A DNA stretch of 54,388 bases, from the IMG/VR virus record IMGVR_UViG_2061766007_000491; one strand, written 5' to 3'. The translations under genes and the position numbers were made by a program. The DNA is from an uncultured virus (IMG/VR IMGVR_UViG_2061766007_000491). Its lineage: Duplodnaviria; Heunggongvirae; Uroviricota; Caudoviricetes. The notes under the pieces are model-generated. The model ran no database searches and had not been told where the DNA came from. It saw nothing but the letters and a program-made list of their open reading frames with translations. Below are positions 11,206 to 54,388 of the stretch, piece after piece; within the stretch, counting starts at the first letter, position 1, and every line of letters begins with the position of its first letter.

Positions 11206-11330
11206 CTATGAGCCGAGCGGAATAATAGCAGATAGGATATATAAAGAACTTGTGAAACGGCAGGGGGGNNNNNNNNNNNNNNNNNNNNNNNNNNNNNNNN
11301 NNNNNNNNNNNNNTTCCTGACGGTGCATTA

Positions 11331-16092: not shown

Positions 16093-16365
16093 GATTTCGG
16101 CAGGTGTTTTATCGTTTTGTCACCTGCCGTTATGCCGAAAGGCGGTTAANNNNNNNNNNCTGCGAGGCCAATGCGCAGTACACCTGACGGGTCAGGCAGT
16201 AGCGGAACTATGGTCGCAATGGCTGGGAAGAGCCGATAGTGGATTCCCTCTTTTTTGGTTTTGTGGGGNNNNNNNNNNNNNNNNNTAGCGGATTTTAGCC
16301 ATAAAAACATAAGCATAAACAAAGTCCTAAGAAAATGTTGTTTAAGTTATACACCCTTTTTTACT

Positions 16366-21237: not shown

Positions 21238-21255
21238 GTGTGTTTGAGGTGTGGG

Positions 21256-22515
21256 ATGAAGGTAAAGATTCATAATTTCCAATCCATTGCAGATGCCGAA
21301 TTGACGTTTGACAAGGGTTTAATAGCGATCACTGGCCCGAATAGCTCTGGGAAGAGTGCAATTTTCAGAGCGTTAAGGTCAGTGATACAGAACCCTTCGA
21401 CTGCCAAGCATTCTGTGAAAAAAGGTACAAAGCGAGCCGAGGTTACTGTTTCTGGACTCGATAATGCACCTGATGTTACTTGGGCAAGAACCTCACTGGA
21501 AAGCAGTTATAAGACAGCAGAAGGTGAGTTTCAACGGGCAGGTCGCAATAACGTCTATGACTTTTTACCTTCATTCCCGCTTAAAATGGACGGAGCGAGG
21601 ATGTTGAACTTTCAGACGGAATGGGATACGCTGTTTCCGTTCGAGAAGAGCAATACCGAGCTATACACTTTATTTGAACGTATATTCAGTGTAGTGGATA
21701 GTGCTTCTATCGTGAATGTGATGAAGCAAGACGAGAAGGAAGCGAAAGCAAAGCTGAACAATACGATTGATGAATTGAACAAGCTGTCTCAACGAGAACA
21801 ACTGAGAAAGGATATTTTTACCGATGACCAGAATGAGGCTATGGTGCTGAACCTGGTTAAAAAGGTAGAGGAGACAGAGACTTTAGCCAGTGCAGCGAAA
21901 GAAGCGTTTGGTGCGCTAAGTACATGGTCTAGTTTGTTAGAATTAGCTAAGAAGGTTACAGACATAACCGTTTCAGACACCGACATAACAACCGTGAAAC
22001 AAGCGTTAGACCTTCGTAAAGACTATGATACGGTCTGTGAGCTTTCAAAGTTACTGGCTTTATCAAACATTTCCCCTATAGAGTGCTTCATAGGGGGTAT
22101 TGAAGAATACTTCGCAATAGCGAGGGACTTGGAGGATTTGGAAACTATGACTAGAATCGTCAATAGCTTTTCTCTTGATACACCACTATTTGACGATGGT
22201 TCACTAGATGTAGTTTCACGGGCATTAGCGATGCGTGCTGATTACCTAAACTTAACTAAACTTGAATCACTTACAACTGAAGCACAAGGGGTTCAAGATA
22301 TAAATTCTTCTCTTACTGCGCTGGATGAGTTATCTAGCGTCTTGCCAAAAATCACACAACTCAAAGATGCCCTCACTTTATACGAAGAACTAAAGAAGAA
22401 AGAAGCAGAACTCGCTGAATTGGAGAAGGATTTAGCAGTGGTGAATGCTGAATTAAATAAAATAAATGTGTGTCCGTTATGCGGTACACCAATAGGAGAC
22501 CATAAACATGAATAA
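21256..22515 (+). CDS. SbcC/Rad50-like ATPase, N-terminal part
   Basis: IHNFQSI, Walker A GPNSSGKS, Q-loop, coiled coil ending in zinc hook CPLCG. Confidence 0.85.
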   Translation: MKVKIHNFQSIADAELTFDKGLIAITGPNSSGKSAIFRALRSVIQNPSTAKHSVKKGTKRAEVTVSGLDNAPDVTWARTSLESSYKTAEGEFQRAGRNNVYDFLPSFPLKMDGARMLNFQTEWDTLFPFEKSNTELYTLFERIFSVVDSASIVNVMKQDEKEAKAKLNNTIDELNKLSQREQLRKDIFTDDQNEAMVLNLVKKVEETETLASAAKEAFGALSTWSSLLELAKKVTDITVSDTDITTVKQALDLRKDYDTVCELSKLLALSNISPIECFIGGIEEYFAIARDLEDLETMTRIVNSFSLDTPLFDDGSLDVVSRALAMRADYLNLTKLESLTTEAQGVQDINSSLTALDELSSVLPKITQLKDALTLYEELKKKEAELAELEKDLAVVNAELNKINVCPLCGTPIGDHKHE

Positions 22516-26443: not shown

Positions 26444-26627
26444 AGGGACGCTGAATTACAGCGTGACCTGATTGAATTTGAGATTGCGGATAAGATTGCA
26501 GGTCTGGCACGGTTATTAGACATTAGCGTACCTGAATTGCGTGAGCTAGTGCCAGTGGAAGATGATTTTGACCTGTTACATGAAATGTTCCGCATGGCGA
26601 TTGAGTATAGAGAAAAGAGGAAGCGAC

Positions 26628-27533
26628 ATGAAGTTAGTGGTGATAGGAGACGTGCATCTAAGCGAGACCACGCCTAGAAGCTGGTGTGCGGATTATGCAC
26701 AAGTCACGTTAGACGACTTTATCAAGGCAGTGGAAATGGGTGATGTAGCCCTTGTGCTGGGCGATATGCTCAACACACCTGTAGTGAGCGAGAGCTATAA
26801 GGTGGCGATTGCGGATAGACTGAAAGCGACTGGCAGAGCGGTTTACACAATCTGGGGCAACCATGATATAGATGGTCTGAACATGAGTGCAACACACCGA
26901 ACAAGTCTGAACCTGCTGGGGTCGTTTGGTGTGTTGAATGTGTTGCCGATGGGTTGGTATAAAATGGAAGGGGTTGACATGATGGTGTTACCCCTGATGA
27001 AAAACGTACAAGTACCGACATACACAGGCACGAATGATTCAATCATGGTAGGTCACTTATTTTTTGAGAGCAGTCTGGATAAGGACTTTTCACTGACAAA
27101 GGAACAGGTGTTCAATAGTGGGTTCAATTATGTGTTCTTAGGACATGACCATGAGCCGTATAAGGACATATCCAGTGACAAGACAAGACTGGTACGGTTA
27201 GGCAGTCTGTGTCGCAATACGAGTCACGAATACAATCTACAACGTGTGCCAGAGGTTGCTGTGCTGGAATTAAAAGATGGTAAGATACTGAGCTATGAAC
27301 GGAAGCAGATACCCACTTTGAAAGGGATGCAGATATTTCGGGCAGACGTGTTTGATAAGCCAGTTAAGAATCGGTTAAGCAGTTTGATGGATATTGGTGA
27401 TATTTTACAGATGTTTGAGACGGATAACAAGGAAGGGTTGACCGTGCGCAAGGCATTGAATGACATGGCAGCACCGAAGGAAGTGATTGAATACATTGAA
27501 TCGTGCTACGAACGAGTAGGTGCAAGGTTATAA
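26628..27533 (+). CDS. SbcD/Mre11-like metallophosphoesterase nuclease
   Basis: GDVH, LGD, GNHD, LGHDH, GSL; start MKLVVIG after AGAGG. Confidence 0.9.
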   Translation: MKLVVIGDVHLSETTPRSWCADYAQVTLDDFIKAVEMGDVALVLGDMLNTPVVSESYKVAIADRLKATGRAVYTIWGNHDIDGLNMSATHRTSLNLLGSFGVLNVLPMGWYKMEGVDMMVLPLMKNVQVPTYTGTNDSIMVGHLFFESSLDKDFSLTKEQVFNSGFNYVFLGHDHEPYKDISSDKTRLVRLGSLCRNTSHEYNLQRVPEVAVLELKDGKILSYERKQIPTLKGMQIFRADVFDKPVKNRLSSLMDIGDILQMFETDNKEGLTVRKALNDMAAPKEVIEYIESCYERVGARL

Positions 27534-27666: not shown

Positions 27667-28833
27667 ATGAGTGAATACGAAGAAGTGAAACCTATTACAG
27701 AGGAAGAGGTTGCAGAGGTGAACACAATAGTGTCCGATGGTTTTAACTATGACGCATTGGAGATACCTCATTGGTTGTTTGAGAGAGCTATTCTCTTGAA
27801 CAGTATGCAGTTATTGGCGATTGCCGTGAAGGAAGGAAGCGATCAAGTGTCCAGTTTGGTTGAGTTAAAGCCTATAGCTGGAACGCCAGCGGTAGAGTTG
27901 ACAGCAAACACAGGCGACATCCTGGTGCGCAGTGTGGTTCCGATACTGAATGAAGCGCATATCTTGGAAGGATGCTATCATGTGGACTTCAAGACTTTGT
28001 TTGGTCTGGTCAAGAATGGGGGCAATAAGCTGGTATTAAAAGCGGTGAACGATGCACCAGTAGTGATGACTCTGGGCGGTGAAGCCGAATTAGATCAGTT
28101 TACCGTAGCAGATGAGGTGTTCAACCAGCCTGTATTAGACACACAAGGGGGTTTTTCGGGTTCGTATGAGAGTGTGGACTTCCTGAATGTGTTGTCACGG
28201 GTAAGTGCTTCAATGGCACTAGCACAGACGGTAGAGTCTAAGAAGGTCAAGATTGATGCGGAAGGAACAGCGTATTGTAATTTTATATCGAGTTTGTTTC
28301 GAGCAGTGGGAAGTCCTGTGAAGGGTATCTCATTGAGAGCGATTGATGTGCAGATACTACAGAAGCTATTGACACCGAACCCGACTTTCTTGTTTAAGGA
28401 ACTGGAAGAGGGTTATCTTTTCAAGACCGAGCGTGAATGTGTAGTATTGAGGAAGTGGAAAGCTGAAAACGCAGAGGGCATTCAAGATTACTTTATCCAA
28501 GCTGAGAATTGGTTTAACCTCGACCCGAACTATACGTCTAAGATCGTGGGCTTGATGAAGGATAGACTTGGTTCTATGGGCGTGATGCGCATGAAAACAG
28601 AGAACACGAAGCTCATTTTCACAGCTAAGACACGCAACAGCAAGCAGTTACAATTCCCTGTAACGAATATACTGCCACCTGGGATTGAGTTTAACATACT
28701 TTGTCCAGTGCAGGTGGTTTCAGCGATGTTGTCACTGTTTAAGGATGAAGCAGTGATGAAGGTATCTGTAAAGGAAAACAAAGTACAGTTTAGCACCGAT
28801 AAGATTGAAGTGGTGTTCGGTAGCTGTATGTAA
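27667..28833 (+). CDS. Hypothetical protein, possibly a divergent sliding clamp
   Basis: 388 aa with a repeating helix/strand pattern and clamp-like segments (VELTANTGD, VDFKTLFGLVK); weak. Confidence 0.4.
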   Translation: MSEYEEVKPITEEEVAEVNTIVSDGFNYDALEIPHWLFERAILLNSMQLLAIAVKEGSDQVSSLVELKPIAGTPAVELTANTGDILVRSVVPILNEAHILEGCYHVDFKTLFGLVKNGGNKLVLKAVNDAPVVMTLGGEAELDQFTVADEVFNQPVLDTQGGFSGSYESVDFLNVLSRVSASMALAQTVESKKVKIDAEGTAYCNFISSLFRAVGSPVKGISLRAIDVQILQKLLTPNPTFLFKELEEGYLFKTERECVVLRKWKAENAEGIQDYFIQAENWFNLDPNYTSKIVGLMKDRLGSMGVMRMKTENTKLIFTAKTRNSKQLQFPVTNILPPGIEFNILCPVQVVSAMLSLFKDEAVMKVSVKENKVQFSTDKIEVVFGSCM

Positions 28834-31529
28834 TGAATCTGGAATCTGCATTATTGCAGCCTTTATGTGGGGTGGGTGGTTATCCGTTTTTAGAGCGGTT
28901 AAGCATTGCACCCTACTTATGTGGGAATGAGACTCTAAACTTAGGTAATCCTGAATGGGATGACACTGAGTTTAGAGTTTGTATTTTACAGCCTGGACAC
29001 TTGGAACCGAAGCTAATGAGCCACACATTGACGCAGTTGGTGGCTTTGATGCGAAAAGCAGAGGAAAAGACAGGTGTGCGGATGTATATAGACTTTGCGT
29101 TTCGCCCTGGGCAAAGGGATTGCGCTGAGTTGCGCAAAAAAGGTGTACCAGAGGTGTTCGGATGGACAAGTCTGCATGAACTGAGCGACTTTGATATGTT
29201 ATGTTGCTCTTTTTCAGTACATTTTGAGAGCGCAAGCATACTTCCAGTGCTATGGGGCGGTGGAATTGAGCCGTTCCACAGGAAAAGAGACCAGAAAACA
29301 CCGTTTGTAATGGGCGGTGGCATTATGGCACAGTATTTGGAAGCCTTGTTCGGGTATAAGGACGGTGCAGTGCTGGATTTACTGTTTCTGGGCGAGGGTG
29401 AGGGGCGTTTAACTGAGCTTTTAGAGGTATTAGTCAAGGAACGGTCACGGTTAAGATGGGATAGGTTAGGTGTTATACACGATTTGGTGACGAAGTTTGA
29501 TAACTTCTACTACCCAGACGGCTATGAACACGTTTATGAAGGTACAAAGCTGGTAGAGATCAGGAAACGCTTTGATTGGTGTCCCGATAAGGTCAAGTAT
29601 TATCGGAACTACAACCTGAGACCTACGATTTTTGAGAATAGACTGCTACTGACGGACAACGATCATGCTGGAAGGGCTGCGTTGCGTATAAGTCAGGGAT
29701 GCAGTGGTGCTGGGTGTTGTTCGTTTTGTACGGAAGGGAGTGAGGCTGGCCCTTGGCGTGAATACCCGATAGATCATGTAGTGGGTAAGTTTAATGACTT
29801 GGTGAGGTCATGCGCACCGAACCTATTAAGTTATTACGCATATAATCTTAACTTTCATAGTGGTTATGTGAAGTTGATGGAAGAGGCTGGCAAGCGGTTT
29901 GCCAACCAAAGTGTGATAGCGTTTAGGGCTGATGTGGTTGCGGAAACACCTGGATATATCCGTTTATTAAAGCAGATGGGAGCCAGCCGTATCACGATTG
30001 CATTAGAAGGGATTAGTGAGCGGATGCGTGTCATGCTGAACAAGAACGTGACATGGAACCACTTTGATAAGGTAGCAGAACAGGTGTTCGCCGAGGATAT
30101 TGGCGTGTTAAAAGTGAACCTGATCGTGACTGGCTATGAGACGCAAGAGGATTATGACGAGTTTATATCTAAGGTAGAGGCGTTTATCCGTAAGCGTGAT
30201 GAAGTGGGCAGTAGAGTTAAGTTGAGCTTTTCTGCAACTATACTGGTGACATATTGGAATACGGCTATGCAATGGAGTCCGAGAAGGTCAATAGTAGAAG
30301 CCATGAATACTGATAAGGTTTACCAGTTATTTGAACGGTGTCGTGCGTTAGGTGTGGCGGTCAAGTTGCATAGCGGTCACGAATACACGTTCCAACAGTT
30401 GATGATAGACGCAGGGCGGTCTATTACAGAGCCAGTGGTGCGCTGGTATAGAGCCGTATGGGAACAGAATAAGGCTTTGTTTTATCCGTTCGAGGACTTG
30501 AATAACAGGATATTTGAGTATCTGGGTGTAACAGACAGAGAAGCGTACTTTCTACAGGAACATGGGTACGGTGAACTGAATCCGACCAGCATCTACGATA
30601 TTATACCATACCAGACACAGCGTATGTGGTTCCAGAGACAGAGCTTGCCTTATTGTTTGAGGACACAGGCGAATAAGAATCCCAAGTGTCACGGATGTGG
30701 TCTGTGTAATGTGGACTTACGGAACACTATACTGACCAGAGCGGTGGAAACTGATTTGAATGTGCCTCTGGGACGGAATCAGGCACGTTCTACGCTAAGA
30801 GTGTATTATCAGATCGCAGGGAATGATTTTGCACGGTGTAGGCATAAGCTGGTGTTATGTCACTCTATCGCTGGTAAGTTGATAAAGATGCTGGGTCTGG
30901 AAGAGCAATTCCATTCTGTGTGTAATTACTCTGATGAAGCTATCACTGCGAACGGTCAGAATGACGTGTGGGATGGGTTCGGTGCGTTTGATATTGATTT
31001 CCGATGCGGATTACGAGAGTTGCAGAATAAAGTCCCCAGAACGCTCTACAGCGAGTTTAAGGATGGAAGGGTTATAAGTACCCAGACACTAGATAAAAAC
31101 GCCTTAGAAGTCAAATATGGAAGCGTATGGAGGTTTTATGCGAAACAATCCCCAGATGTACTGTCGGAACGGATGGATAAGTGGGATGGTACAGTGGTGA
31201 TACGGACACAGACGGATGCGGTTACGGTGCAGAATGGCACACTCTATGCTGACAGAAAGGACATGGGTTTGTGTTTAGGTGGTGGAGGTTCGGGCAGTGT
31301 GGGGTTTATGTACTTGGGGCATAGGCTGAATCCTTTAATGGTGTTAGCGTCTATGTTTAAGATACCGTTATTAAAGGTTAAAAGCGAGTTTAGGGTTTCA
31401 CGGCTGGGTTTATATCGGGATAGAATCGGAATCTGCAAAATGTGTGGTGGTGTGTCAGAGCGTGATGTGATTTCGCACTCGACCGCCGTGTGCGGTAAAT
31501 GCGCTTGTAAACTATACTATAGGAGGTAG
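28833..31529 (+). CDS. Large radical SAM protein
   Basis: ISQGCSGAGCCSFC cluster motif, FRAD, ITIALEGISERMR, GYETQED; C-terminal CxxC pairs. Confidence 0.85.
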   Translation: MNLESALLQPLCGVGGYPFLERLSIAPYLCGNETLNLGNPEWDDTEFRVCILQPGHLEPKLMSHTLTQLVALMRKAEEKTGVRMYIDFAFRPGQRDCAELRKKGVPEVFGWTSLHELSDFDMLCCSFSVHFESASILPVLWGGGIEPFHRKRDQKTPFVMGGGIMAQYLEALFGYKDGAVLDLLFLGEGEGRLTELLEVLVKERSRLRWDRLGVIHDLVTKFDNFYYPDGYEHVYEGTKLVEIRKRFDWCPDKVKYYRNYNLRPTIFENRLLLTDNDHAGRAALRISQGCSGAGCCSFCTEGSEAGPWREYPIDHVVGKFNDLVRSCAPNLLSYYAYNLNFHSGYVKLMEEAGKRFANQSVIAFRADVVAETPGYIRLLKQMGASRITIALEGISERMRVMLNKNVTWNHFDKVAEQVFAEDIGVLKVNLIVTGYETQEDYDEFISKVEAFIRKRDEVGSRVKLSFSATILVTYWNTAMQWSPRRSIVEAMNTDKVYQLFERCRALGVAVKLHSGHEYTFQQLMIDAGRSITEPVVRWYRAVWEQNKALFYPFEDLNNRIFEYLGVTDREAYFLQEHGYGELNPTSIYDIIPYQTQRMWFQRQSLPYCLRTQANKNPKCHGCGLCNVDLRNTILTRAVETDLNVPLGRNQARSTLRVYYQIAGNDFARCRHKLVLCHSIAGKLIKMLGLEEQFHSVCNYSDEAITANGQNDVWDGFGAFDIDFRCGLRELQNKVPRTLYSEFKDGRVISTQTLDKNALEVKYGSVWRFYAKQSPDVLSERMDKWDGTVVIRTQTDAVTVQNGTLYADRKDMGLCLGGGGSGSVGFMYLGHRLNPLMVLASMFKIPLLKVKSEFRVSRLGLYRDRIGICKMCGGVSERDVISHSTAVCGKCACKLYYRR

Positions 31530-40899: not shown

Positions 40900-41621
40900 C
40901 AGATATTAGTTTTTGTGTAAGTTGGTCTAACTTTGTGCAGACCGTGAATGAGAAGCTGGAACATGGACTTGAGGATGGTACGTTCAAGTCTAACAAGGTC
41001 GAGATATGTGTGGATGAGGATGTTGTCAAGAAAGTGGGCTTTGATCTGATAGTGAATGAAGCTGTTGGTCAGATAAAGGCACATATCAGGGCTATGGGCA
41101 AGGGTGATGGCGGTAGGATTGATGTGGAGTATAGGGATGCCAGCTTTGATATTGTAGAAGGGAGTAAGGCTCGCTATGCAATTATAACGGATAATAGTGT
41201 TAGGGTCATGGTGGTGTCTAACCTGTGTACTAAACTTAGTATGAGTCACCCTGTGCTGGACAGCATCTTTAAGCAGGTGTGTGGTTCATTAGGAGAACTG
41301 ATGCGTACAGAGTGCAGAAAGGAGAATCTGGAACGGTGGAAGCACAAGGAAAACGTGGTTAAGATGTGTGTGCAGAGAACAGTGAGTAATGAACTGACGT
41401 TCTTTGCAAAGCATAACTTGGCTTATACAGTTAAACCTGGTACATTCAACAGTACATGGGATGTGGAGTTTAGTGAGAAGCATGAGACCTATACTCTGAC
41501 AGTGGACTTGGATATGTTTCTGGGTACGATCAAGGTGTATGTCCTGAACACTGCCAAACATAATGAGGTAATGGTATCGGAAACACTTGAATTTGAGAAA
41601 GTAAATGAGCATAACGACTAA
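40896..41621 (+). CDS. Hypothetical protein
   Basis: 241 aa, ATGA-coupled. Confidence 0.65.
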   Translation: MTDISFCVSWSNFVQTVNEKLEHGLEDGTFKSNKVEICVDEDVVKKVGFDLIVNEAVGQIKAHIRAMGKGDGGRIDVEYRDASFDIVEGSKARYAIITDNSVRVMVVSNLCTKLSMSHPVLDSIFKQVCGSLGELMRTECRKENLERWKHKENVVKMCVQRTVSNELTFFAKHNLAYTVKPGTFNSTWDVEFSEKHETYTLTVDLDMFLGTIKVYVLNTAKHNEVMVSETLEFEKVNEHND

Positions 41622-42795
41622 AAAAGGTGATGCGGGGATGACCGACATTCTGTTCGGTCAACGTGTGCGGAAGGATGACCTGCATATCCAGACCGTTGGG
41701 GCTATGGATATGTTTCAGGCACAGTTAGGCGTTATCCGTGCGAGAATCCCAGGCTGGAAAAAGAAGTGGGATGCGGTCAAGGATTGTAAGGACAGCACTA
41801 CAAAGGAATGGTCTGATGGGTTCTGGGACACGCTGGAAGGTGTGATCTATCGGGCAGAGATTGACCTACAGGCTGCAATGGGTGTATGTTCCACACCTGC
41901 GAGGGTCGAGAACAAGGTCACAGTGCAGTGGGGTAAGTTGTTCACCGATGAAAAGATAAAGCCGATGGAGGACTTGATACACTCTACAGAGAGTGTGTTA
42001 AAGGAAGCTGTGAAGGAAGGTGAAGTCAAGTGCGGGTTCTTAAAATCGAATTGGCTCGTTCCAGGCAGTGACCCTGTGAGCGCACAGTTTAACTTAGCCA
42101 GAACCTATTGCAGACACGCAGAGAGTTGTGTGTGGAATCTGGTGCTGAATAGATACCTGACTGATCGCTTAGAGCTTGCTGAGAGAGTGGCAAAGTGGCT
42201 GAACCGTTTGTCTGATGTGTTGTTTATCCTGACTCGGTATCTGGCCGAGCGAGTGATTCCACAGTATCGGTATTGGATGCACGAACGGAATAAGGCAAAT
42301 AACGAACGGAAACACCCCAAGAAGCTCTTTAAGGAGCTAAAGAGGGTAAAGACACTCACCCCACTGCAAAAATCCCTTGTATGGCGAATTGAGAACGCTT
42401 ATAAGCAAAATGATCTCATAGCCCAGAGACGGGATAAGCTGGTGCGGTATTTTATCCAGAAGGTTATAAAGCCGACTGTGAGGGTGAAGGACTGGAAGGG
42501 TCGGTATAGCCAATATACGATGATGACTTGTCAGGTATTCTTAGAGTTGGCGCAGAATCTATCGGATGCGGTGAAGCAGTGCAAGTGGGACTGGTTAGAG
42601 TTCTTTCATGCAAAGGGCGAGGGCTGGGATAAGATGGTGCTGGACGTGATTATCTATAGCAGTGAGGATAATTATGCGAAGTATGAGTACCTGTTTGATG
42701 TGCATTTGGATTGCTTGAAGCTGAAAGTGTACTATACCGATTATGAGACTAAAACGCTTATAACGGAGAAAAGTTTTTCTTATGAGAGTGTTTAG
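41605..42795 (+). CDS. PduO-type ATP:cob(I)alamin adenosyltransferase with an extra C-terminal domain
   Basis: ITTKKGDAGMT, RVRKDD, LARTYCRHAE, WLNRLSDVLFILTR; ~180 extra aa. Confidence 0.85.
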   Translation: MSITTKKGDAGMTDILFGQRVRKDDLHIQTVGAMDMFQAQLGVIRARIPGWKKKWDAVKDCKDSTTKEWSDGFWDTLEGVIYRAEIDLQAAMGVCSTPARVENKVTVQWGKLFTDEKIKPMEDLIHSTESVLKEAVKEGEVKCGFLKSNWLVPGSDPVSAQFNLARTYCRHAESCVWNLVLNRYLTDRLELAERVAKWLNRLSDVLFILTRYLAERVIPQYRYWMHERNKANNERKHPKKLFKELKRVKTLTPLQKSLVWRIENAYKQNDLIAQRRDKLVRYFIQKVIKPTVRVKDWKGRYSQYTMMTCQVFLELAQNLSDAVKQCKWDWLEFFHAKGEGWDKMVLDVIIYSSEDNYAKYEYLFDVHLDCLKLKVYYTDYETKTLITEKSFSYESV

Positions 42796-44893: not shown

Positions 44894-45008
44894 GCGTGTG
44901 TTGTTAATCCCATAACAACATGATCGCCAAAGTAGGGGTACTGGTGCGTTAGGTATGTTTATGAACGCATGAACAGCCAGAAAGGTATCACGAAAGAGGC
45001 GGTCAATG

Positions 45009-45122
45009 ATAGAGGGTCATGCGAGTCACACTTGCGCCCGTTTAGCATTGGGGAATGCGGTTTACGAAGTGGGTTCGACACTCACAGGACGCCCGTGACT
45101 TGGGTAAACCATGAATCTCTAT
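45009..45122 (+). ncRNA. Putative structured RNA with a tRNA-like T-arm
   Basis: T-arm GTGGG-TTCGACA-CTCAC and GCATT/AATGC hairpin inside GAGTCAC/GTGACTT and ATAGAG..TCATG/CATGA..CTCTAT stems; no anticodon arm. Confidence 0.4.
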
Positions 45123-45126
45123 TTAA

Positions 45127-45203
45127 TGCCCTGTAGCTCAGTTGGATAGAGCGGGTGACTGTTAATCACTAGGGCGGTGGTTCGAGTCCACCTGGGGCAG
45201 CCA
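45127..45203 (+). tRNA. tRNA-Asn(GTT)
   Basis: TAGCTCAGTTGGATAGAGC D-arm, GGTGA-CTGTTAA-TCACT anticodon arm, GGTTCGAGTCC, encoded CCA. Confidence 0.93.
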
Positions 45204-45304
45204 TTTCTCTCTGTGATAGAGAGATTTATACAATACTTGTAAGAGGTTAGTTCTCCTTTCTTGACCTCTCTGTGTTGCAGGGTATTGTGTGTTCATATTG
45301 AATG

Positions 45305-45338
45305 CCGTGTGTAGCTAAGGTTATACACGGTTTTTTAT
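45305..45338 (+). terminator. Intrinsic terminator directly upstream of cassette array 1
   Basis: CCGTGTGTAGC-TAAG-GTTATACACGG followed by TTTTTT. Confidence 0.75.
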
Positions 45339-45341
45339 TGT

Positions 45342-46523
45342 CTGAATGGTGTTATCCGAGGTGGGCATTACAGTACAAGCAAGGTGTTATATGCTAGGTG
45401 TAGCGGATATAGGAATGCGCATAGTCATGTAGAGAGTCAAATAGGGTTTCGCTGTGAATGGTGTAGAAAGGGGTGGCAGATCAAATATAGCATCTAATAG
45501 TCAGAGGTGTGGGAGTAGGTTAGTGCATTACAGTAGGGGTACAGAGATAAGTTCCTTTGGGTTTCGTCTGTGAATGGTGTATTGATGGGAGGGGCAAATA
45601 GTAATGCAGCAATGTATGTGCGGTGTGGTGGGTATAGGAATGCAGATGGTACAAGATGGAACGCACATACAGCAGTGAGAGGGTTTCGCTGGGGTGTGAA
45701 TGGTGTAGAAAGGAGGGTGGATAGAGGTGCTAGGTGGATGTTAGCTAGTGATTATGTAAGAGCTAGTTATAGGGATGTTTCTAAGGTAGTGGCGATACAG
45801 GATATAATAGGGTTTCCCTGTGGATGGTGTATTCAGGGGTGGACGTGCAGGGTTACAATCTAGGTATATTAGGTGTGGTCTTAGGAATGGGAGTGAAGTT
45901 TTGAGTTATGGAGGTAGCGGAGTAGGGTTTCGCTGAATGGTGTAGTGAGAGGCAGTGGTTCCTATAAGGGTACGTCAGTAGTTTATTTTAGGAGTGGTTA
46001 TAGAATTGGGACTAATTTAAGGAGTAGGGTAGCAGAACACATAGGGTTTCGTCTGAATGGTGTACGAAGGGGTGGTACAGGTATAGTGTCAGTTACAATG
46101 TTTCAGGCGAACAGGGTAAGGTGTGGGAGTAGATACACTAGGCAATTTAGCGGTGATAGTAGTTTAATAGGGTTTCGTTTGGGGTGTGAATGGTGTAATA
46201 AGAGGCGGGAATTGGTCAAGGTTTCAGGGGGCAGATGCTTATAGATGTGGTCGAAGAGTAGGGAGTGTGTTAAGTAATGAAGTAGGGTTTCGTTCTGAAT
46301 GGTGCTATACGGAGTGGGAGATATAGCTACAGTCCGTTTTATATGCGAGGTGGGTATAGGAATAATGGTGCGTTGAGTTATGTGAATAAGACGTTAGGGT
46401 TTCGTTCTGAATGGTGTATATCGAGGTGCAGGTGCTATTAGTATGAATGTAATGTGGTTTAGAGGAGGTGAAAGAGGTGGGGTATATGCGAGGTCGTATG
46501 CGACTTCTAATGTAGGGTTTCGT
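45342..46523 (+). repeat. Cassette array 1: 10 variant C-terminal segments of the FGE/CLec-fold proteins
   Basis: Units start (C/G)TG(A/G)ATGGTG near 45342, 45454, 45570, 45696, 45820, 45933, 46053, 46186, 46295, 46407 and end GGGTTTC(G/C); each reads NGVxRG...GFR without stops. Confidence 0.9.
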
Positions 46524-46550
46524 TGACAACTCTCTGGGGCATGGTATAGT
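46523..46550 (+). promoter_or_regulatory. Sigma70-like promoter abutting the last cassette of array 1
   Basis: TTGACA-N16-TATAGT with TG extension. Confidence 0.65.
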
Positions 46551-46578: not shown

Positions 46579-48057
46579 ATGATAGATAGGAATTGGGTTA
46601 TAGATGTAGATGACATTGCTTGCTGGCTCGACCAGATGGACAATCCGCAACGGTATGGGGCGCAGAGCATGGGTAACTTCCCTGTGACGTGTGATGTGAG
46701 TTATCAGGGCAGTCCGTGTACGAATGTGTTTGGCTATTTACAGCCTGATTATGGCGGGAGTTATTGGCCTCCTGGGACGTATGCGCCTGGGTGGAGTGCA
46801 ACACTGCATAATGACGCTGTAAAGGTGACTGTGCCTGCTACATGGGGGGATTATTATTCCAGTGTAACGAGTCCTAGCAGTGGGTATCATGCGAAGTGGA
46901 TATTAGACAAGGACATACCTGGTGGCTTGATGATGGAAATGAATAATCCGTCAGGGGGCAACGGCGGTGTGGTCAACAGGGATATACGCTCTTGGGTGAA
47001 CATAGATGCGTTGTTATCACAGCAGAAGGAGTGTGTGATTAGCTTTGAGGGCAGAGGCAGTGCAGGGATGCAGGTACGCACAGCGGTTCATGGTAAGTAC
47101 GCAAGCGCAGATAGTAACGCTTTTCTGTATCAAGAGGACATTGATCTGGATGAGGCTTGGCACGAATACGCTGGACACTGGCATTGTACGGGTGTGAGCG
47201 GTTCAGGGAGTTTTTACTTTTTCGGGAATCTGGTGGCTGGACAGTTGCAGGTGCGGAATCCGATGCTGACTACAACAGGGAGGAAATGCAGATACACGCC
47301 TGGGACACGAGGGGCTACAGTGAATACGGGGGGTGGATGGCAAGATGTTACCTTTCAGGGTAACAATGTGGACTTAACAGACGGTGCTTTTGACTGGAAC
47401 GATTGGATTTTATCGCTTGGCAAATACTTCACAGATACCAGTTCCATATTGAATGTGGGGTCAGAGGTTATATCCCCGACTTATAACAGGTATAGGTTTA
47501 TCACGATTGAATGCTGGGTGCGTAAGAATAGCCTAGCCAGTGACGCTATAACGGACTGTGCCATATACGGAGCGCAGAATACAAGCGGTCTGGTGCTGAA
47601 TCGGTACGGTCAGTTTAACTTTGTATGTGCCAACAGTTCGAGCAATCTGGATAGGTATGAGTACCCTGGTATTGACAGCAATAGGATTATCCAGTATATC
47701 AATACCGATCAATGGTATCATGTCGTGCAGATGATAGGGAATAAGCACGTTTGTTATGTGAATGGTGTGAAGGTGCATGAGACGAGTGATCTGGCTTGGA
47801 ATCCCACCATAGGCACTAGCTTTAAGTTTTTACACGGAAATGCAGACTGGCTGACTCAGACAGTGAACACGAATAACAGCAAGTCCAGAGTCATGCAGAA
47901 TGGATGCTGGTCAGTGCAGTGCTTGAGAGTGTATAAACGGTTATTGACCGATGAAGAGGTTTTAGCGTGTTACAACGCTGAAAAGGAAATGTATGTGGGG
48001 GCGTTAGGTGATGCCTCTTTTGATACGAATAATATAGCGGATATAGCGTATGCTTGA
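46579..48057 (+). CDS. LamG/ConA-like lectin-domain protein with an upstream carbohydrate-binding-like domain (possible virion adhesin)
   Basis: ITIECWV, QWYHVV, YVNGV, LRVYKRLLTDEEV...YNA. Confidence 0.8.
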   Translation: MIDRNWVIDVDDIACWLDQMDNPQRYGAQSMGNFPVTCDVSYQGSPCTNVFGYLQPDYGGSYWPPGTYAPGWSATLHNDAVKVTVPATWGDYYSSVTSPSSGYHAKWILDKDIPGGLMMEMNNPSGGNGGVVNRDIRSWVNIDALLSQQKECVISFEGRGSAGMQVRTAVHGKYASADSNAFLYQEDIDLDEAWHEYAGHWHCTGVSGSGSFYFFGNLVAGQLQVRNPMLTTTGRKCRYTPGTRGATVNTGGGWQDVTFQGNNVDLTDGAFDWNDWILSLGKYFTDTSSILNVGSEVISPTYNRYRFITIECWVRKNSLASDAITDCAIYGAQNTSGLVLNRYGQFNFVCANSSSNLDRYEYPGIDSNRIIQYINTDQWYHVVQMIGNKHVCYVNGVKVHETSDLAWNPTIGTSFKFLHGNADWLTQTVNTNNSKSRVMQNGCWSVQCLRVYKRLLTDEEVLACYNAEKEMYVGALGDASFDTNNIADIAYA

Positions 48058-49249
48058 TTTTTTGGAGATAGTAGGGAGTAGTGCCACGTTTAAGTTGTCA
48101 GGTGGTGCGATCAGTAACTTTGCAAAGACACCGACCTTGAGGGTGCAGTGTATAGATCAACAGAACCATGCCGTGTTTGAATATACATTCACGGGAAGTG
48201 AATCTACAACGTATGGCAGTGCGTTACCGTATGGGTATTATGAGGTGCGTGTCGTGGCTTATAATAGCTATGGTCAGGTGGTCAGTAAGACAAAGCCGTT
48301 ACTTTTGTATAAAACACCGATGGCAGGGTTCGTGTATATTAAGAAAGGCACGTTCACGATGGGCAGTCCTGAAAGTGAAGTGGGACACCAAGCGAATGAG
48401 GCACAGCAGAGCTTTACCATAAGCAAGGATTATCTTATCCAGAGAACGCCCTGCACACCGAAGTATTTGAGTGCTGTTAAGACTGCGTATGCGACATTGT
48501 ATAACAGTGGGGTGACTCTGACTAGGGTTAAGATCACGAATGCGGAATGGTCAACCACAGCAATCAATCAGGGTACAATGTACGGTAGCTGGTCTGCCAG
48601 TGATGAGACGCCAGCAGTTAGTATCTCGTGGGAGCGTATCATGGATGTGGACACAGCGAATAGTACGATTAGTGGCAGTGCTGCGCCTTACACGGCTACT
48701 GCGACACCGTTCAGTAGTAGTGGTGTGGGTATCTGCACGGCGTTGAATGCGTTGAATCGAAGCGGTCAGGATTATTATTTGAGTGGGTATCAGTATTGTT
48801 TACCAACGGAATGCCAGTGGGAATTTGCGTGTAGGGCAGGTTGTTCCGATGCGTTGTATAATGACACGGCTTTGGATGCCACGACAACGCCAGCCTATAC
48901 AGCAGCCAGCAGTCCCCAGCCGAACCTATGCGAGATAGCTTGGTATAACTATAATTCAGGCGGTTCTAAGAAAAAGGTGGGATTGTTAAAGCCAAACGCA
49001 TGGGGGTTATACGATATGTTAGGGAACGTATGGGAATGGGTGCTAGACCAGTACAATGCGAGTTACGCAGCAGTAGCTACAGCAGGTGAAACGGTGCATG
49101 GCTCGCCAGTTTACACGGAAGTGTCAAGTGGCTCCTGGGGTGTGAATGGTGTATTAAGGGGTGGGCATTATGGGAATCAAGCTGGTAGGTTAAAGCAGAG
49201 AGCGAATGTATTGTTTAGNNNNNNNNNNATAGCTCTTAGCCCAGCATAG
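48050..49249 (+). CDS. FGE-sulfatase/C-type-lectin-fold protein, target gene 1 (N-gap in its variable tail)
   Basis: GTFTMGSP.SE, PAVSISW, LPTECQWEFACRAG, KPNAWGLYDMLGNVWEW, VLRGG; ends IALSPA* after the gap. Confidence 0.9.
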   Translation: MLDFLEIVGSSATFKLSGGAISNFAKTPTLRVQCIDQQNHAVFEYTFTGSESTTYGSALPYGYYEVRVVAYNSYGQVVSKTKPLLLYKTPMAGFVYIKKGTFTMGSPESEVGHQANEAQQSFTISKDYLIQRTPCTPKYLSAVKTAYATLYNSGVTLTRVKITNAEWSTTAINQGTMYGSWSASDETPAVSISWERIMDVDTANSTISGSAAPYTATATPFSSSGVGICTALNALNRSGQDYYLSGYQYCLPTECQWEFACRAGCSDALYNDTALDATTTPAYTAASSPQPNLCEIAWYNYNSGGSKKKVGLLKPNAWGLYDMLGNVWEWVLDQYNASYAAVATAGETVHGSPVYTEVSSGSWGVNGVLRGGHYGNQAGRLKQRANVLFXXXXIALSPA

Positions 49250-50320
49250 CGCAGTGTTGGAGGCGGAGCCGACAACAGCATAGGATTTCCACGGCGGATG
49301 CCGTTGTGCCGAAGGCACTTATGGTATATACTAATAGCAAGTATTTTTTACTTACTATTAGTATAATTATTTTATAAATAATAGAGCCATATTTAGTTAT
49401 GGATGTCCAGCCCGAAGAGGCGAGACGAGTGGGGATAGAAGGGATAATGGTGTATTAAGGGGTGGGCAGTATAGCAGGGATGCTTACTTAGCACGGTGTA
49501 GTGGGTTAAGGAATGGATGGGGGAAGTGGAATCAAGGTGGTGGAGTAGGGTTTCGTATTGGGGTCGAGTCCGCAGAGACCAGACGGCAGTGGTTGAATGG
49601 TGGTGTAATAAGGGGAGCAGGGTTAGGGTATGCTTATGCTTTCAGGACGAGGGTAGGTTTTAGGTTGACAGGATATAACTTTAAGTATAGTAGTGTAAGT
49701 GACTTAGGGTTTCGTTGTGGGGTAGGCGTGAATGGTGTAAGAGCGGATAGAGGCGGTAGATGGGGTTTAGGGTCAGATTATATACGTTGTAGTTATAGGG
49801 ATAGGAGTAGTCAAGGGAGTGGTGGTGATAAGGTAGGGTTTCGCTGAATGGTGTAAATAGGGGAGGTTGCATTAGGGCAGAAGAACCAGCATGGAGGGTA
49901 AGGAATGCTAGTAGGATGAATTGGTATGGTTTAACGCATACATGGAATATAAAAGGGTTTCGTCTGAATGGTGTTAGTAGAGGTGGTGCTTATGTGCGAA
50001 CAGGAGGTCATACTAGGAGTAGTGGGAATAGGTGGCATAGCAGTTCAAGGGTGGATGTGAATAGTGGAATAGGGTTTCGTTCTGAATGGTGATTATAGAG
50101 GGGGTTCGTATAAAAGTGGGCAACCAATGTATATTAGAATTGGTTATAGAAGTGGTTTTAGTAGGGGGTATGTGAGTGTTTACATAGGGTTTCGCTGTGA
50201 ATGGTGTGTTAAGGGGTGGAGTATATACAAGAACAGGTGAATACAATAGAAGTAGTGGGTATAGGTTTAATAGAGTAATGACGTTAGTGAATAGTGGAAT
50301 AGGGTTTCGTTTTGTGTAAA

Positions 50321-50338
50321 TTGTTCCACGTGGAACAA
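50321..50338. promoter_or_regulatory. parS-like palindrome, copy 1
   Basis: TTGTTCCACGTGGAACAA matches the bacterial parS consensus TGTTNCACGTGNAACA. Confidence 0.75.
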
Positions 50339-50592
50339 AGGTGAATGGTGCGTTAAGGTCGTATGCGTATGATAGAGCCAGTTTGTATATGAGGAGTGGA
50401 AATAGACGGTCTTATGCAATTAGTGGGACAGGTACAGGTGGTGCATTAGGGTTTCGTTTAGCTGTGAATGGTGTCCGTAGGGGTGGATGTAGCTTAGGGT
50501 CTTTTAGTAATGCGTTTTTTAATAGAATTGTTTATAAGCGAGTTACTGCTATGGATTATGTGTATAATGCGTTAGGGTTTCGTTTGTGTAAA

Positions 50593-50610
50593 TTGTTCCA
50601 CGTGGAACAA
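50593..50610. promoter_or_regulatory. parS-like palindrome, copy 2
   Basis: TTGTTCCACGTGGAACAA with the same TTTGTGTAAA flank as copy 1. Confidence 0.75.
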
Positions 50611-53098
50611 AAGGAATGGTGTCTATCGAGGTGGGCAGGTTGATTCATCCAGTGCAGATAAGCAATGTGTGTCTTATAGGAGTAGTTATCCAGTATTGAG
50701 TTATGTGAATAAGACGTTAGGGTTTCGTCTGAATGGTGTATTGATGGGAGGGGCATATAGTAATGCAGCAATGTATGTGCGGTGTGGTGGGTATAGGAAT
50801 GCAGATGGTACAAGATGGAACGCACATACAGCAGTGAGAGGGTTTCGTCTGAATGGTGTATATCGGGGTGGCAGTGTGACACAAACGGCTAGTGTAGTGA
50901 AGGTTAATTATAAGAGAGGAGATAAGAGGGGCATGACGTATCAGGCAGTAGGGTTTCGCTGAATGGTGTATTGAGAGGTGGAGCATCTAATTCAGCAACG
51001 GTATGGTATTATCGCAGTAGTGGATATAGGAATGTTAAAGGTTTAGAGATAACAGCGGAAAATAGAGGGTTTCGTCTGAATGGTGTGCAGAGAGGTGGGT
51101 CGTGGTTTAATGTAAGTGTGTATTCAAGACATGGTTATAGAAGGGGTGTTGCTTTTAATACTATAGGTAATACAGCGTTTGGGTTTCGTTCTGTGTGAAT
51201 GGTAGTGGAATAGTAAGGGGAGGAGGGTATCATTATCATGCTACAGGTTTTAGATGTGGGAGGAGGATGGCTAGGGCGAATGAATCGTCATTAGGGGGGA
51301 TTTATATAGGGTTTCGCCTGAATGGTGTATATCGGGGTGGAAGCAGTAGTACAAGTTTAGCTAGTAATACGAATAGGAGTGGGCATAGGAGAACAAGGGA
51401 AAAGAATGTAAGTGGGATGAGTGCAGTAGGGTTTCGTATCTGAATGGCGTGGCTAGGGGTGGACAGACAAGTAATTTAGTGGATAGATATAGAAGTGGGT
51501 ATAGGTGGGTATCGAGTGCGAGGACGTATGTGCATGGTGGGATAGGGTTTCGTGCTGTGGGGTGAATGGTGTAATAAGGCCAGCGCATAAGATACATCAG
51601 GCATATATGTATAGGTGTGGAATGAGATATGGATATGCAAGTAGGAATACGGCATGGAATGGATATATAGGGTTTCGTTTATCTGAATGGTGTAGCCAGA
51701 GGTGGATATTATAGTGCAACGTATGGTCATGCAAAGGATTGTAGGAGTGGAAGGAGACGTGAGGACTTTAATAGGAGGGTGGGCAATGTGGTGATAGGGT
51801 TTCGTTCTGAATGTTGTGGTTCGAGGTGGGGCTTATAACAATAGTTCAGATAGGTGTATATGTGCAGGGCATAGGAGGAATACTTATACAAGACCAACAG
51901 CGAATAGTGCGGTAGGGTTTCGTTTGGGGGTGTGAATGGTGTATTGAGGGGTGGGCAGTATGGGAATCAAGCTGGTAGGTTAAAGCAGAGAGCGAATGTA
52001 TTGTTTAGCTATAGTACGGCTTATGTAGGGTTTCGTTCTGAATGGTGCTAGGCGGGCTAGTAGGGTAAACGAGGTTAATAGTGCTAAGGAAGAAAGGTGT
52101 GCGTGGAGAACTCCGAGGGAACGAGATTCAGGGAATGCGAGTATAGGGTTTCGTTCTGAATGGTGTAGATCGTGGGGGCAGTACACATATTAGCTGGAAG
52201 GCATATCAGTATAGGGTTGGGAATCGTGAGACTAACACTAGGAGGACATCAGGGGGTGGATTAGGGTTTCGTTTGGGGTGTGAATGGTGTATTACGGGGG
52301 TCGGGATATAGGAGTCCGTCAATGGAGTTTAGGAATGGTGGGCGTAGGTATCAGAACTATAAGAAGAGTCAATCAGCGGAGAGCTTAGGGTTTCGTTTGA
52401 GGTGTGAAGGGTGCTAGGAGGAGTGTTGCGTTTGATAATACGAACTTTGCAACGTATGGAAGGAGTGGTCGAAGGAATGGAAGCAGTGCTAGGTCGGACA
52501 GAGCGATATACATAGGGTTTCGCTGAGGGTGTGAATGGTGTAGTGTTAAGAGGGGGTGACGCATGGAATACGCTAANNNNNNNNNNNNNNNNNNNNNNNN
52601 NNNNNNNNNNNNNNNNNNNNNNNNNNNNNNNNNNNNCTGAATGGTGCTAGTAGGGGTGGGTATTTTAATAACAGTGCAAGTCTGTTTAGATGTGGTGGAT
52701 ATAGAAATAGCGGTTCATTGAGTTATGTGCATAGTGGGATAGGGTTTCGCTGGGGTGTGGATGGTGTAGAAAGGGGTTGTTATTATAGTTCTAGTTATGG
52801 GTATGCTTCTAGGACTAGGAGCGGACGCAGACAGAGTGTTACAGTGGGTAATGATAATCCAGCAGTAGGGTTTCGCCTGAATGGTGTACGTAGAGGTGGC
52901 GCACATGAGCAGGTATCGAGAAGTGTGAGGTGTTCGTGGAGGGTTGCTAGGTTAAGGGACAATCCTAGTGCCACGTTCGGGTTTCGTCTGAATGGTGTGA
53001 ATCGAGGTGGGAGTTATACGCAGTACAATTTAGTGTATATGTATAGAAGTGGTGGGTTAAGACAACCGTATGTAAGGAGTCATCCATTAGGGTTTCGC

Positions 53099-53127
53099 TT
53101 GACGTTCTGATATGTGTTTGATAGAGT
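53099..53127 (+). promoter_or_regulatory. Sigma70-like promoter abutting the last cassette of array 2
   Basis: TTGACG-N17-TAGAGT followed by GGGGTCGGCTATATTG, like the leader after array 1. Confidence 0.5.
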
Positions 53128-53158
53128 GGGGGTCGGCTATATTGGATAGGGTTGGGTT

Positions 53159-54388
53159 ATGTACGATTTTTTGGAGATAGTAGGGAGTAGTGCCACGTTT
53201 AAGTTGGTGGGTGCAACGCAGAGCGGTTTTGTTAAAGCACCGACATTGAAGGTGCAGTGTGTAGATCAGCAGACGCAGATGGCTTATGAAGAGCCGTATT
53301 ATGGTACGGACGCAGCACAGTATGGAGCGAAACTGCCATGCGGTTATTTTAAGGTGCGAGTGGTCGCCTATAACGAGTACGGTATGGAAATGGCTGGCAC
53401 TAAGCCGTTATACCTGTATAAGACGCTGGTTCCTGGCTTTGTGTATGTCAAGAAGGGTGCGTTTAAGATAGGCAGTCCGTCAACCGAAGTGGGACACCAG
53501 AGCAACGAGAATCAGGCGAACTATGTTTTGACACAGGATTTTATGATACAGCGGACGTGTTGCACGGGTGCGTATCTAAGAGGTGTAGCAGACGCATACC
53601 ATAGTCTGACGAAAACAGGCATTACACGGACACAGATCACGAATGCGACTTGGTACAGTCCTGAGCCAGCATTGCCAGCGGATATGTTCAACTATTCAGG
53701 CAGTGCTGCATGGGTGGGTACAGATGAAACGCCAGCGGTGAGTATATCATGGGAGAGGATTATGGACGTGCAGACGACTAACGCTAACAGTACGGTGAGC
53801 AATCATGTGGCGGTGGCTTATCCGTTCGCTGATTATGCAGGGGTGTGTACCGCTCTGAACGCTCTGAATAGTGCCAGTGATACGGACTATGGATGCAGTG
53901 GGTGGGTTTATACATTGCCGACCGAAGCACAGTGGGAGTACGCTTGCAGGGGTGGCACGACTACGGCGTTATATAACGGTACAGGGCTGGATATGACAGC
54001 AGTGCCGAGCTATACGACAGCGAACAGTCCACAGCCTAACTTGCAGAGGATTGCATGGTACAATTACAATAGCTATGGAAGCAAGAAGGTAGTGGGTCAG
54101 CTAGAACCGAACAGGTGGGGGCTATACGATATGTTAGGGAACGTATGGGAATGGGTGTTAGATCAGTATAATAGCAGTTATACGAGTGTGCTTAATGGTG
54201 GCGAGACACTACACGGGTCGCCAGTTTATACAGAAGTCACCTCTAACTCCTGGGGTGTGAATGGTGTAGTGTTAAGAGGGGGTGACGCATGGAATACGCT
54301 AACAAGCGCAAGTGGATGGAGGTGTGGACGCAGGTATGGGTATAGGAATGTAGGCCCTACTTATACTGGAAAGGCTTTAGGGTTTCGT
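53159..54388 (+). CDS. FGE-sulfatase/C-type-lectin-fold protein, target gene 2 (runs off the window; absent from the ORF track)
   Basis: Frame MYDFLEIVGSSATFKL...LPTEAQWEYACRGG...NRWGLYDMLGNVWEW...WGVNGVVLRGGDAWNTLTSASGWRCGRRYGYRNVGPTYTGKALGFR; paralog of 48050-49249. Confidence 0.9.
   Translation, partial: MYDFLEIVGSSATFKLVGATQSGFVKAPTLKVQCVDQQTQMAYEEPYYGTDAAQYGAKLPCGYFKVRVVAYNEYGMEMAGTKPLYLYKTLVPGFVYVKKGAFKIGSPSTEVGHQSNENQANYVLTQDFMIQRTCCTGAYLRGVADAYHSLTKTGITRTQITNATWYSPEPALPADMFNYSGSAAWVGTDETPAVSISWERIMDVQTTNANSTVSNHVAVAYPFADYAGVCTALNALNSASDTDYGCSGWVYTLPTEAQWEYACRGGTTTALYNGTGLDMTAVPSYTTANSPQPNLQRIAWYNYNSYGSKKVVGQLEPNRWGLYDMLGNVWEWVLDQYNSSYTSVLNGGETLHGSPVYTEVTSNSWGVNGVVLRGGDAWNTLTSASGWRCGRRYGYRNVGPTYTGKALGFR

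Follow-up and report, generated by a model that had tools for sequence, protein, structure and literature searches.

Tandem silent cassettes as a candidate store of alternative tails for two FGE-sulfatase-fold proteins of an uncultured phage

Two genes and two arrays of partial copies

The DNA considered here is IMG/VR record IMGVR_UViG_2061766007_000491, 54,388 nucleotides (nt) from an uncultured virus of the class Caudoviricetes, and it is this whole stretch that is meant below by the window. Towards its 3′ end there are two paralogous genes with a formylglycine-generating enzyme (FGE)-sulfatase fold, of the C-type-lectin kind, and, before and between them, two arrays of short tandem units that spell out other versions of the C-terminal ends of the two proteins. 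The principal features are as follows.

45345–46523, + strand: array A, ten silent cassettes of 105–123 nt with linkers of 3–11 nt; all ten in frame and stop-free, no start codon in the linkers
48050–49249, + strand: FGE-sulfatase-fold gene 1 (candidate expression site 1; PF03781, E 3.8e-26), tail from 49145, N at 49219–49228, ending G-F-R-IALSPA-stop
49446–53098, + strand: array B, 29 complete silent cassettes and one interrupted by N; 29 of 29 in frame and stop-free
51927–52036, + strand: cassette copied as the tail of gene 1, long-linker class (80 of 82 nt match)
52527–52576, + strand: start of the cassette copied as the tail of gene 2, long-linker class (50 of 50 nt), followed by a 60-N gap at 52577–52636
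53159–54388, + strand: FGE-sulfatase-fold gene 2 (candidate expression site 2; PF03781, E 8.2e-28), 3′ end open, tail at 54260–54388

The two gene products are 60% identical. Each cassette is 102–123 nt long and runs from N-G-V to G-F-R, and in all there are some 40 silent versions of the C-terminal 35–43 residues. Every one of the 39 complete cassettes has a length divisible by three and is free of stop codons in the N-G-V frame, and not one of them is stop-free in either of the other frames. The cassettes do not make up one open reading frame (ORF): because the intervening linkers (3–12 nt, with three longer) shift the frame from unit to unit and are without a start codon, the arrays are not genes. 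The sequence GGGTTTCG occurs 39 times, always on the + strand and always at or past 45444, against an expectation of 0.66.

As wholes the cassettes differ widely (median pairwise identity 0.65), and there is a single near-identical pair, whose members lie in different arrays; some share 3′ segments of 24–33 nt, a possible sign of mosaicism. Their edges are another matter. The terminal glycine codon is GGG in 39 of 39 cassettes while at interior glycines GGG accounts for 31%, and the terminal arginine is CGT or CGC in 38 of 38, as against 10 of 183 interior arginines, 152 of which are AGG or AGA. The cassette boundaries are thus conserved as DNA beyond the need of the protein. Cytosine makes up 9.4% of the cassettes overall and 5% of their third codon positions (19% in the gene bodies), a depletion that probably reflects the general strand bias of the phage working on DNA under weak constraint. 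Every gene of the window is on the + strand, and GC skew stays near 0.3 from end to end. In roughly one linker of four the codons that precede the tail in the gene are copied (…GGGGTGTG before AATGG), and both current donors belong to that class, which with two cases is suggestive.

A structure model of the gene 2 product, made from a 65-sequence alignment, has a mean predicted local distance difference test score (pLDDT) of 69.6 and a predicted template modelling score (pTM) of 0.75, with blocks of the tail at 34–60. The structures that it matches best are those of PvdO, formylglycine-generating enzymes and TvpA (2y3c). The tail itself was modelled with low confidence.

Tails as cassette copies, and their variation among relatives

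A preliminary description of this DNA had reported that 46 nt are identical at 52531, where they run up to an N gap, and at 54257. The string does occur exactly twice, at 52531–52576 and 54257–54302, with no occurrence expected from 100 shuffles, and the identity is really one of 50 nt (52527–52576 equals 54253–54302), ending at 52576 because it is there that the run of N at 52577–52636 starts. For gene 1 the corresponding comparison, of 49137–49218 with the cassette at 51927–52008, gives 80 equal positions of 82, including an exact run of 50 nt. An exact run of at least 43 nt is found in one of 741 cassette–cassette pairs and in both pairings of a gene tail with a cassette, and the relation of tail to cassette is therefore that of a specific copy and not of family resemblance. 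The same description had the two genes bearing different cassettes of one array, and this is borne out, with both donors in array B.

In each of the two genes the donor has been kept, gene copy and array copy coexisting in the window; that of gene 2 is readable over its first 50 nt, and past this point would be expected to match the gene 2 tail. Cassette adenines are unchanged in the two tails (34 of 34), the sole two differences being at cassette G positions. The tail of gene 1 may also be described as 23 nt equal to the cassette at 49446 with the remainder equal to the cassette at 51935, which would be a mosaic, but point mutation explains it equally well.

How have these tails behaved in other phages of the same kind? 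Relatives were compared as proteins from short-read assemblies, following a protein search with gene 2, and they fall into three close clusters: a gene-2 type at 87–94% identity, a second gene-2 type at 80% and a gene-1 type at 88–95%. In both of the alignments that were made the body is near-invariant as far as …S-W-G-V-N-G-V, all sequences differ from there up to G-F-R, and then LALSPA and a stop are again conserved; it is LALSPA and a stop that follow the tail in the orthologues of the open-ended gene 2. Mean pairwise identity is 0.92 for the body and 0.25 for the tail interior in the gene-2 type (105 pairs), and 0.96 and 0.22, respectively, in the gene-1 type (55 pairs). Tails could be parsed in 22 of the 24 homologues, and 21 of the 22 are distinct, with lengths of 34–43 residues. 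Four gene-1-type proteins have no difference over 365 body columns and four different tails, and bodies with zero differences but differing tails recur in the pairs P0139/P0142, P0123/P0128 and P0132/P0133. Because identical bodies bear different tails, tail change must be much faster than point divergence.

Several of the tails expressed elsewhere are cassettes that are silent here. That of P0142 equals the silent cassette at 50467 in 100% of residues, that of P0143 the cassette at 52283 in 95%, those of P0001 and P0130 the cassette at 45573 in 92% and that of P0140 the cassette at 51443 in 81%. The P0140 tail looks composite, its 5′ part being as in P0144 and its 3′ part as in cassette 51443, and an unseen cassette would account for it equally well. 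Nor are tails confined to one paralogue: the same tail type is found on both bodies in P0135 and P0122, and again in P0141 and P0134, and the gene-2-type P0132 has a tail resembling the unit borne by gene 1 in the window (76%). At usual assembly word sizes it is unlikely that body, tail and flank were falsely joined through the shared blocks, which are only about 11–22 nt.

The arrays themselves are present in relatives. Eight other contigs have ORFs that are 96% identical to those read from the end of array B. In other relatives the last array unit is kept and the unit before it is different, as is also so in contigs from runs of other studies, from which it follows that the arrays too turn over. 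Close relatives at the DNA level were found neither among GenBank phages, in DNA and protein searches, nor in IMG/VR by protein or junction motif, where eight single-motif loci look like chance. The runs that contain this large rumen phage are from bovine and sheep gut metagenomes. In the metagenome scan the best locus among the matches listed (L083) was rejected as a bacterial two-domain protein.

Such a locus might be expected to be unkind to assemblers, and the preliminary description had attributed the breaks to segments that are duplicated or heterogeneous in the population. It had placed the end of the window on the GGGTTTCGT boundary of gene 2, and GGGTTTCGT is indeed at 54380–54388. 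It had also put the gap in gene 1 just before the boundary of that gene; a source-run contig aligned from 49229 onward has TAGGGTTTCGT directly 5′ of 49229, so that the gap, 49219–49228, falls in the last part of the cassette, before its boundary. Two of the five N gaps, together with the contig end, sit at duplicated tail or cassette sequence, and the N runs at 11269–11313, 16150–16159 and 16269–16285 are unrelated to the arrays. In the two source runs each exact repeat predicted from the window has a contig that ends at exactly its 30th letter:

Repeat start 45598, contig end 45627
Repeat start 46373, contig end 46402
Repeat start 50696, contig end 50725
Repeat start 51959, contig end 51988

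In addition one source-run contig starts 30 letters before 52637. From the stated word length, the 30-letter offset would be the behaviour of a graph of 31-letter words at duplicates. As the breaks match predicted exact repeats, duplication alone suffices for the two gaps and the contig end, though the end at 54388 probably owes something as well to a 3′ flank common to genes 1 and 2. The N runs are 10 and 60 long where about 28 and about 86 nt are expected to be missing, a mismatch that scaffold gaps commonly show. No evidence was drawn from regions where cover in runs X5 and X8 was low or absent, and joints of aligned contigs with sides of at most 35 letters were treated as repeat effects and not as rearrangements. 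The earlier explanation is thus supported as to duplication. Heterogeneity within the source sample did not appear, there being no alternative tail letters in contigs, which drop rare variants; across public assemblies that half is strongly supported by the 21 of 22 distinct tails on near-identical bodies.

A donor store, and what else might account for it

Taking as observed the arrays, their intact coding, the copy relation in both genes and the tail-only hypervariability of the relatives, we read the arrays as a donor store from which the tails are replaced by non-reciprocal, gene-conversion-like copying of cassettes, and give this a probability of roughly 0.7. The donors would be promoterless and start-less, each holding one version of the last 34–41 residues from N-G-V to G-F-R, and the two paralogous full-length genes of FGE-sulfatase and C-type-lectin fold would serve as the sites of expression. 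Occasionally a cassette would be copied over all or part of a gene's tail, itself remaining in its array. The limits of the tract would be set by a (TGGGGTGT)GAATGGTGT block on the 5′ side and a TAGGGTTTCG block on the 3′ side, both of them conserved in nucleotides. The outcome would be otherwise identical proteins with different ligand-binding tails, and it is presumably the host surface, or some other variable ligand, that they bind. As for machinery, the phage's own UvsX-like and SbcCD-like functions, acting in DNA-templated recombination, are candidates for carrying out the swap:

19201–21234, + strand: UvsX/RecA-like recombinase with an intein (Intein_splicing domain, residues about 66 to 377)
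21238–22512, + strand: SbcC-like ATPase
26562–27530: SbcD-like phosphoesterase

Several points weigh against such copying. A switching event within one population was not observed, and the source-run contigs, from which rare variants are dropped, have a single allele at the tails. The homology blocks (about 10–18 nt at the 5′ edge, 11 nt at the 3′ edge) are short for classical RecA-type recombination. P0130, P0134 and P0136 read from the tail into another cassette, and these may be assembly chimeras or represent a different arrangement. The FGE genes adjoin genes for nucleotide metabolism and small membrane proteins, with no recognisable tail genes among them. Finally, a reverse transcriptase (RT) or a dedicated recombinase could possibly be encoded outside the 54-kb window.

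The first of these last two leads to an unlikely, though not fanciful, alternative, in which an RT encoded beyond the window would copy transcripts of the arrays and its cDNA would replace the tail, in the manner of a diversity-generating retroelement (DGR) with many templates and no adenine mutagenesis. The FGE-sulfatase or C-type-lectin fold is a classic DGR target (PMC5758913); the DGR variable protein TvpA (2y3c) is among both the sequence and the fold matches, the variable tract is as sharp-ended as a DGR variable repeat, and the window covers only part of the phage genome. A DGR was rejected on the adenine test and on variation in tail length: that all 34 adenines are kept, with the two differences both at G, argues against it, as do tails that vary from 34 to 43 residues, one of them, in a homologue, being 100% identical to a silent cassette. 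No match to RVT_1 or another RT family was found in the 66 ORFs of the window, and RVT_1 was likewise without a match in two complete phage genomes that have analogous arrays, in a search in which control genomes did match.

A dedicated recombinase or nuclease that reads the boundary motifs, and swaps or copies cassettes site-specifically, seems improbable too. The motifs are invariant in nucleotides well past coding need and short for homologous recombination, and many ORFs of the window are without a family assignment. No integrase, resolvase or invertase family was matched in the window, however, and as 39 of 39 boundary motifs are direct, simple site-specific recombination would delete, whereas donor and copy coexist. 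Tails that look partial or mosaic would suggest that cross-overs occur within cassettes. An inversion system, or shufflon, was rejected, with all 39 motifs on the + strand and no recombinase family matched in the window.

Need there be any programmed system? Related phages might swap alleles in co-infection and the arrays be decaying duplicates of tails, an account to which the differing cassette content of the arrays of related phages and the lack of within-sample variation in the source-run contigs would be congenial. It is nonetheless very unlikely: decay would leave frameshifts and stops, yet 39 of 39 cassettes are intact with the other frames always closed, and tails expressed elsewhere equal the window's silent cassettes while identical bodies carry different tails. 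That mis-joined reads of a hypervariable region produced the arrays or the tail identities is scarcely credible, for although the window was scaffolded across five N runs and many aligned contigs have short-sided joints, the suspect joints (sides of at most 35 letters) are at shared boundary motifs, independent contigs from two runs of the source sample reproduce 744–1199 nt stretches of array without a difference, and pieces of array are also in related runs of other studies, with array ORFs on other contigs.

Replacement of tails by copying from a silent store has well-known counterparts. Silent cassettes are converted into an expressed gene in Borrelia (vlsE and the vls cassettes) and in Neisseria (pilE and pilS), and the chicken diversifies immunoglobulin genes by conversion from pseudo-V genes; by analogy these appear to be the closest relatives, in logic, of the present locus. 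Common to all are an expression site with partial, promoterless copies stored in tandem close by, cassette edges marked by short conserved blocks, retention of the donor, possibly mosaicism, and the limitation of variation to one segment of an otherwise constant protein. What differs here is that the carrier is a phage, that the stores are shared by two paralogous expression sites, that the scaffold is of FGE-sulfatase or C-type-lectin type, that the homology blocks are very short and that there is no G-quadruplex motif. A G-quadruplex trigger was rejected because none of the form (G3+N1-7)x4 was found on either strand, although the density of G runs in the arrays is about double that outside them.

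Within phages there are other systems to set beside it. In invertible tail-fibre segments and shufflons (Mu Gin, P1 Cin, R64 Rci) an invertase, acting on inverted repeats, selects among 2–7 alternatives. They too provide alternative C-terminal ends for a phage or pilus binding protein from DNA beside the gene, but here the repeats are direct, the donor persists beside its copy, and no invertase was matched in the window. The T-even adhesins gp37 and gp38 undergo motif-mediated swapping of hypervariable segments between genomes, and resemble the present case in the short conserved motifs that flank variable binding segments and in UvsX-type recombination; the difference is that the donors of the present locus belong to the very genome that receives them, where they form silent arrays. 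DGRs are known in crAss-like and other phages (PMC7290462, PMC12386605 and PMC5758913). They share with this locus the fold, a C-terminal diversified segment that ends in G-F-R, sharp limits of the tract and, in all likelihood, the purpose, changed ligand specificity; they are unlike it in that here there are about 40 templates instead of one, no adenine-specific substitution, a variable tail length and no RT found in the window.

A full-text search of the literature, covering main texts, found no tandem silent-cassette store for a phage protein. Cassette conversion is of course already known, and what would be new is its occurrence in a phage, and on the fold that DGRs target. We are inclined to go further, if less firmly, and to think that phages have a second, RT-free route to hypervariation of binders with the C-type-lectin fold, a library of dozens of pre-made tails drawn on by programmed gene conversion, and that this represents a broader class that has escaped description; such a class is suggested by similar layouts in unrelated phages, among them complete genomes with no RT match. 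The known means for targeted diversification of phage binding proteins are DGRs and DNA inversion, to which a silent-cassette store, a form of storage used by bacteria and parasites for antigenic variation, would add a third. If true, it would explain how some phages track variable host surfaces without reverse transcriptase, and would provide a concrete case of recombination through homology blocks of 10–18 nt. Some 40 functional loop variants on one scaffold would be a natural library useful for the engineering of binders. On the practical side such loci break short-read assemblies and risk being mis-annotated as non-coding repeats.

Analogous loci, flanks and other gene content

The analogous layouts deserve description in their own right. 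A complete 87.8-kb phage genome with terminal repeats (L026:7735-10585) has about 16 tandem tail-like units of ~140 nt upstream of an FGE-sulfatase body, and no RVT_1 match. Most of these units have their own Shine-Dalgarno-like site and ATG, giving mini-ORFs of 45–56 amino acids that end G-F-R-I-V, and the body stops just before an R-G-G-S-W…G-F-R segment, with the last unit in frame with the body. The arrangement could represent a domain that is split, or circularly permuted, and has many alternative tails. At L045:6690-7865, in a complete phage genome of 65 kb and high GC, four single-frame tail-like units precede a tail-less FGE-sulfatase body, and this genome too has no RVT_1 match. At L017:9833-11640 (on the same contig as L125), and also at L112:5650-6189, seven tandem tail-like units with a period of 124–153 nt lie directly downstream of an FGE-sulfatase body; in L017 a short hairpin follows each unit and only the last unit is in the frame of the body. 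The neighbours of L017 include primase, Rad52 and SSB, with no RT within 10 kb, on a contig that is about 48% complete.

Around the arrays of the window there are the following further features.

45127–45203: tRNA-Asn(GTT), upstream of the hairpin
45304–45331, + strand: terminator-like hairpin (12-pair stem and T run) just 5′ of array A; consensus match only
46523–46550, + strand: promoter-like site TTGACA, 16 nt, TATAGT, with TG, overlapping the last base of array A; 11 of 12 matches, suggestive
46579–48057, + strand: Laminin_G_3 gene (concanavalin-like lectin), 492 amino acids, overlapping the start of gene 1; PF13385, E 1e-09
49229–49445, + strand: spacer 3′ of gene 1, a C-richer stretch followed by an AT-rich inverted repeat
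about 50310–50340 and 50583–50612, + strand: two cassette junctions with the same extra insert, which bears the perfect palindrome TTGTTCCACGTGGAACAA
53099–53127, + strand: promoter-like site TTGACG, 17 nt, TAGAGT, with TG, directly 3′ of array B; 9 of 12 matches

The arrays are thus flanked by a terminator-like hairpin before A and by promoter-like sites after A and after B, the latter two in the same position relative to the array end; consensus promoter and terminator sites in the region are in no excess over shuffles. The Laminin_G_3 gene lacks a tail cassette and does not resemble the FGE genes in sequence.

The inverted repeat of the spacer after gene 1 has 17-nt arms at 49327–49343 and 49349–49365 that are 94% complementary and 5 nt apart, some 80–115 nt 3′ of the gene 1 stop, and it could serve as a terminator or as a site of break initiation. 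A contig from one source run differs at 49327–49344 by three letters and one deletion in the left arm, which could be a second allele or a paralogous spacer 3′ of gene 2. The GC-rich part of the spacer does not fold with unusual stability (z −1.5), and the spacers have no Rfam match near the gathering score. The junction insert with TTGTTCCACGTGGAACAA is also present in contigs of other organisms from the same runs (loose ends at 50308 and 50610), and is perhaps a small element, either mobile or bound by protein. Immediately before tRNA-Asn(GTT), at 44900–45127, ~200 nt are without a + strand ORF of at least 70 amino acids and are C-richer by eye; against Rfam this stretch matched no family, the nearest being a weak, sub-threshold YrlA-like match with 22.8 bits where the gathering score is 69.

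Elsewhere the window encodes DNA methyltransferases, glycosyltransferases, thymidylate synthase, DHFR, a class II ribonucleotide reductase and RNA ligase. A crAss-like affiliation is hinted at by a single small protein, which matches the crAss001_48 family (PF21825), and by nothing else. A D12-class adenine methyltransferase is split between two adjacent ORFs, 5550–5981 (N-terminal) and 5972–6373 (C-terminal), which could be due to a frameshift or to sequencing error. At 28833–31526 and 41605–42795 there are a large radical-SAM protein and a cobalamin adenosyltransferase, beside the B12-dependent ribonucleotide reductase, and the pair looks like an auxiliary supply of cofactor.

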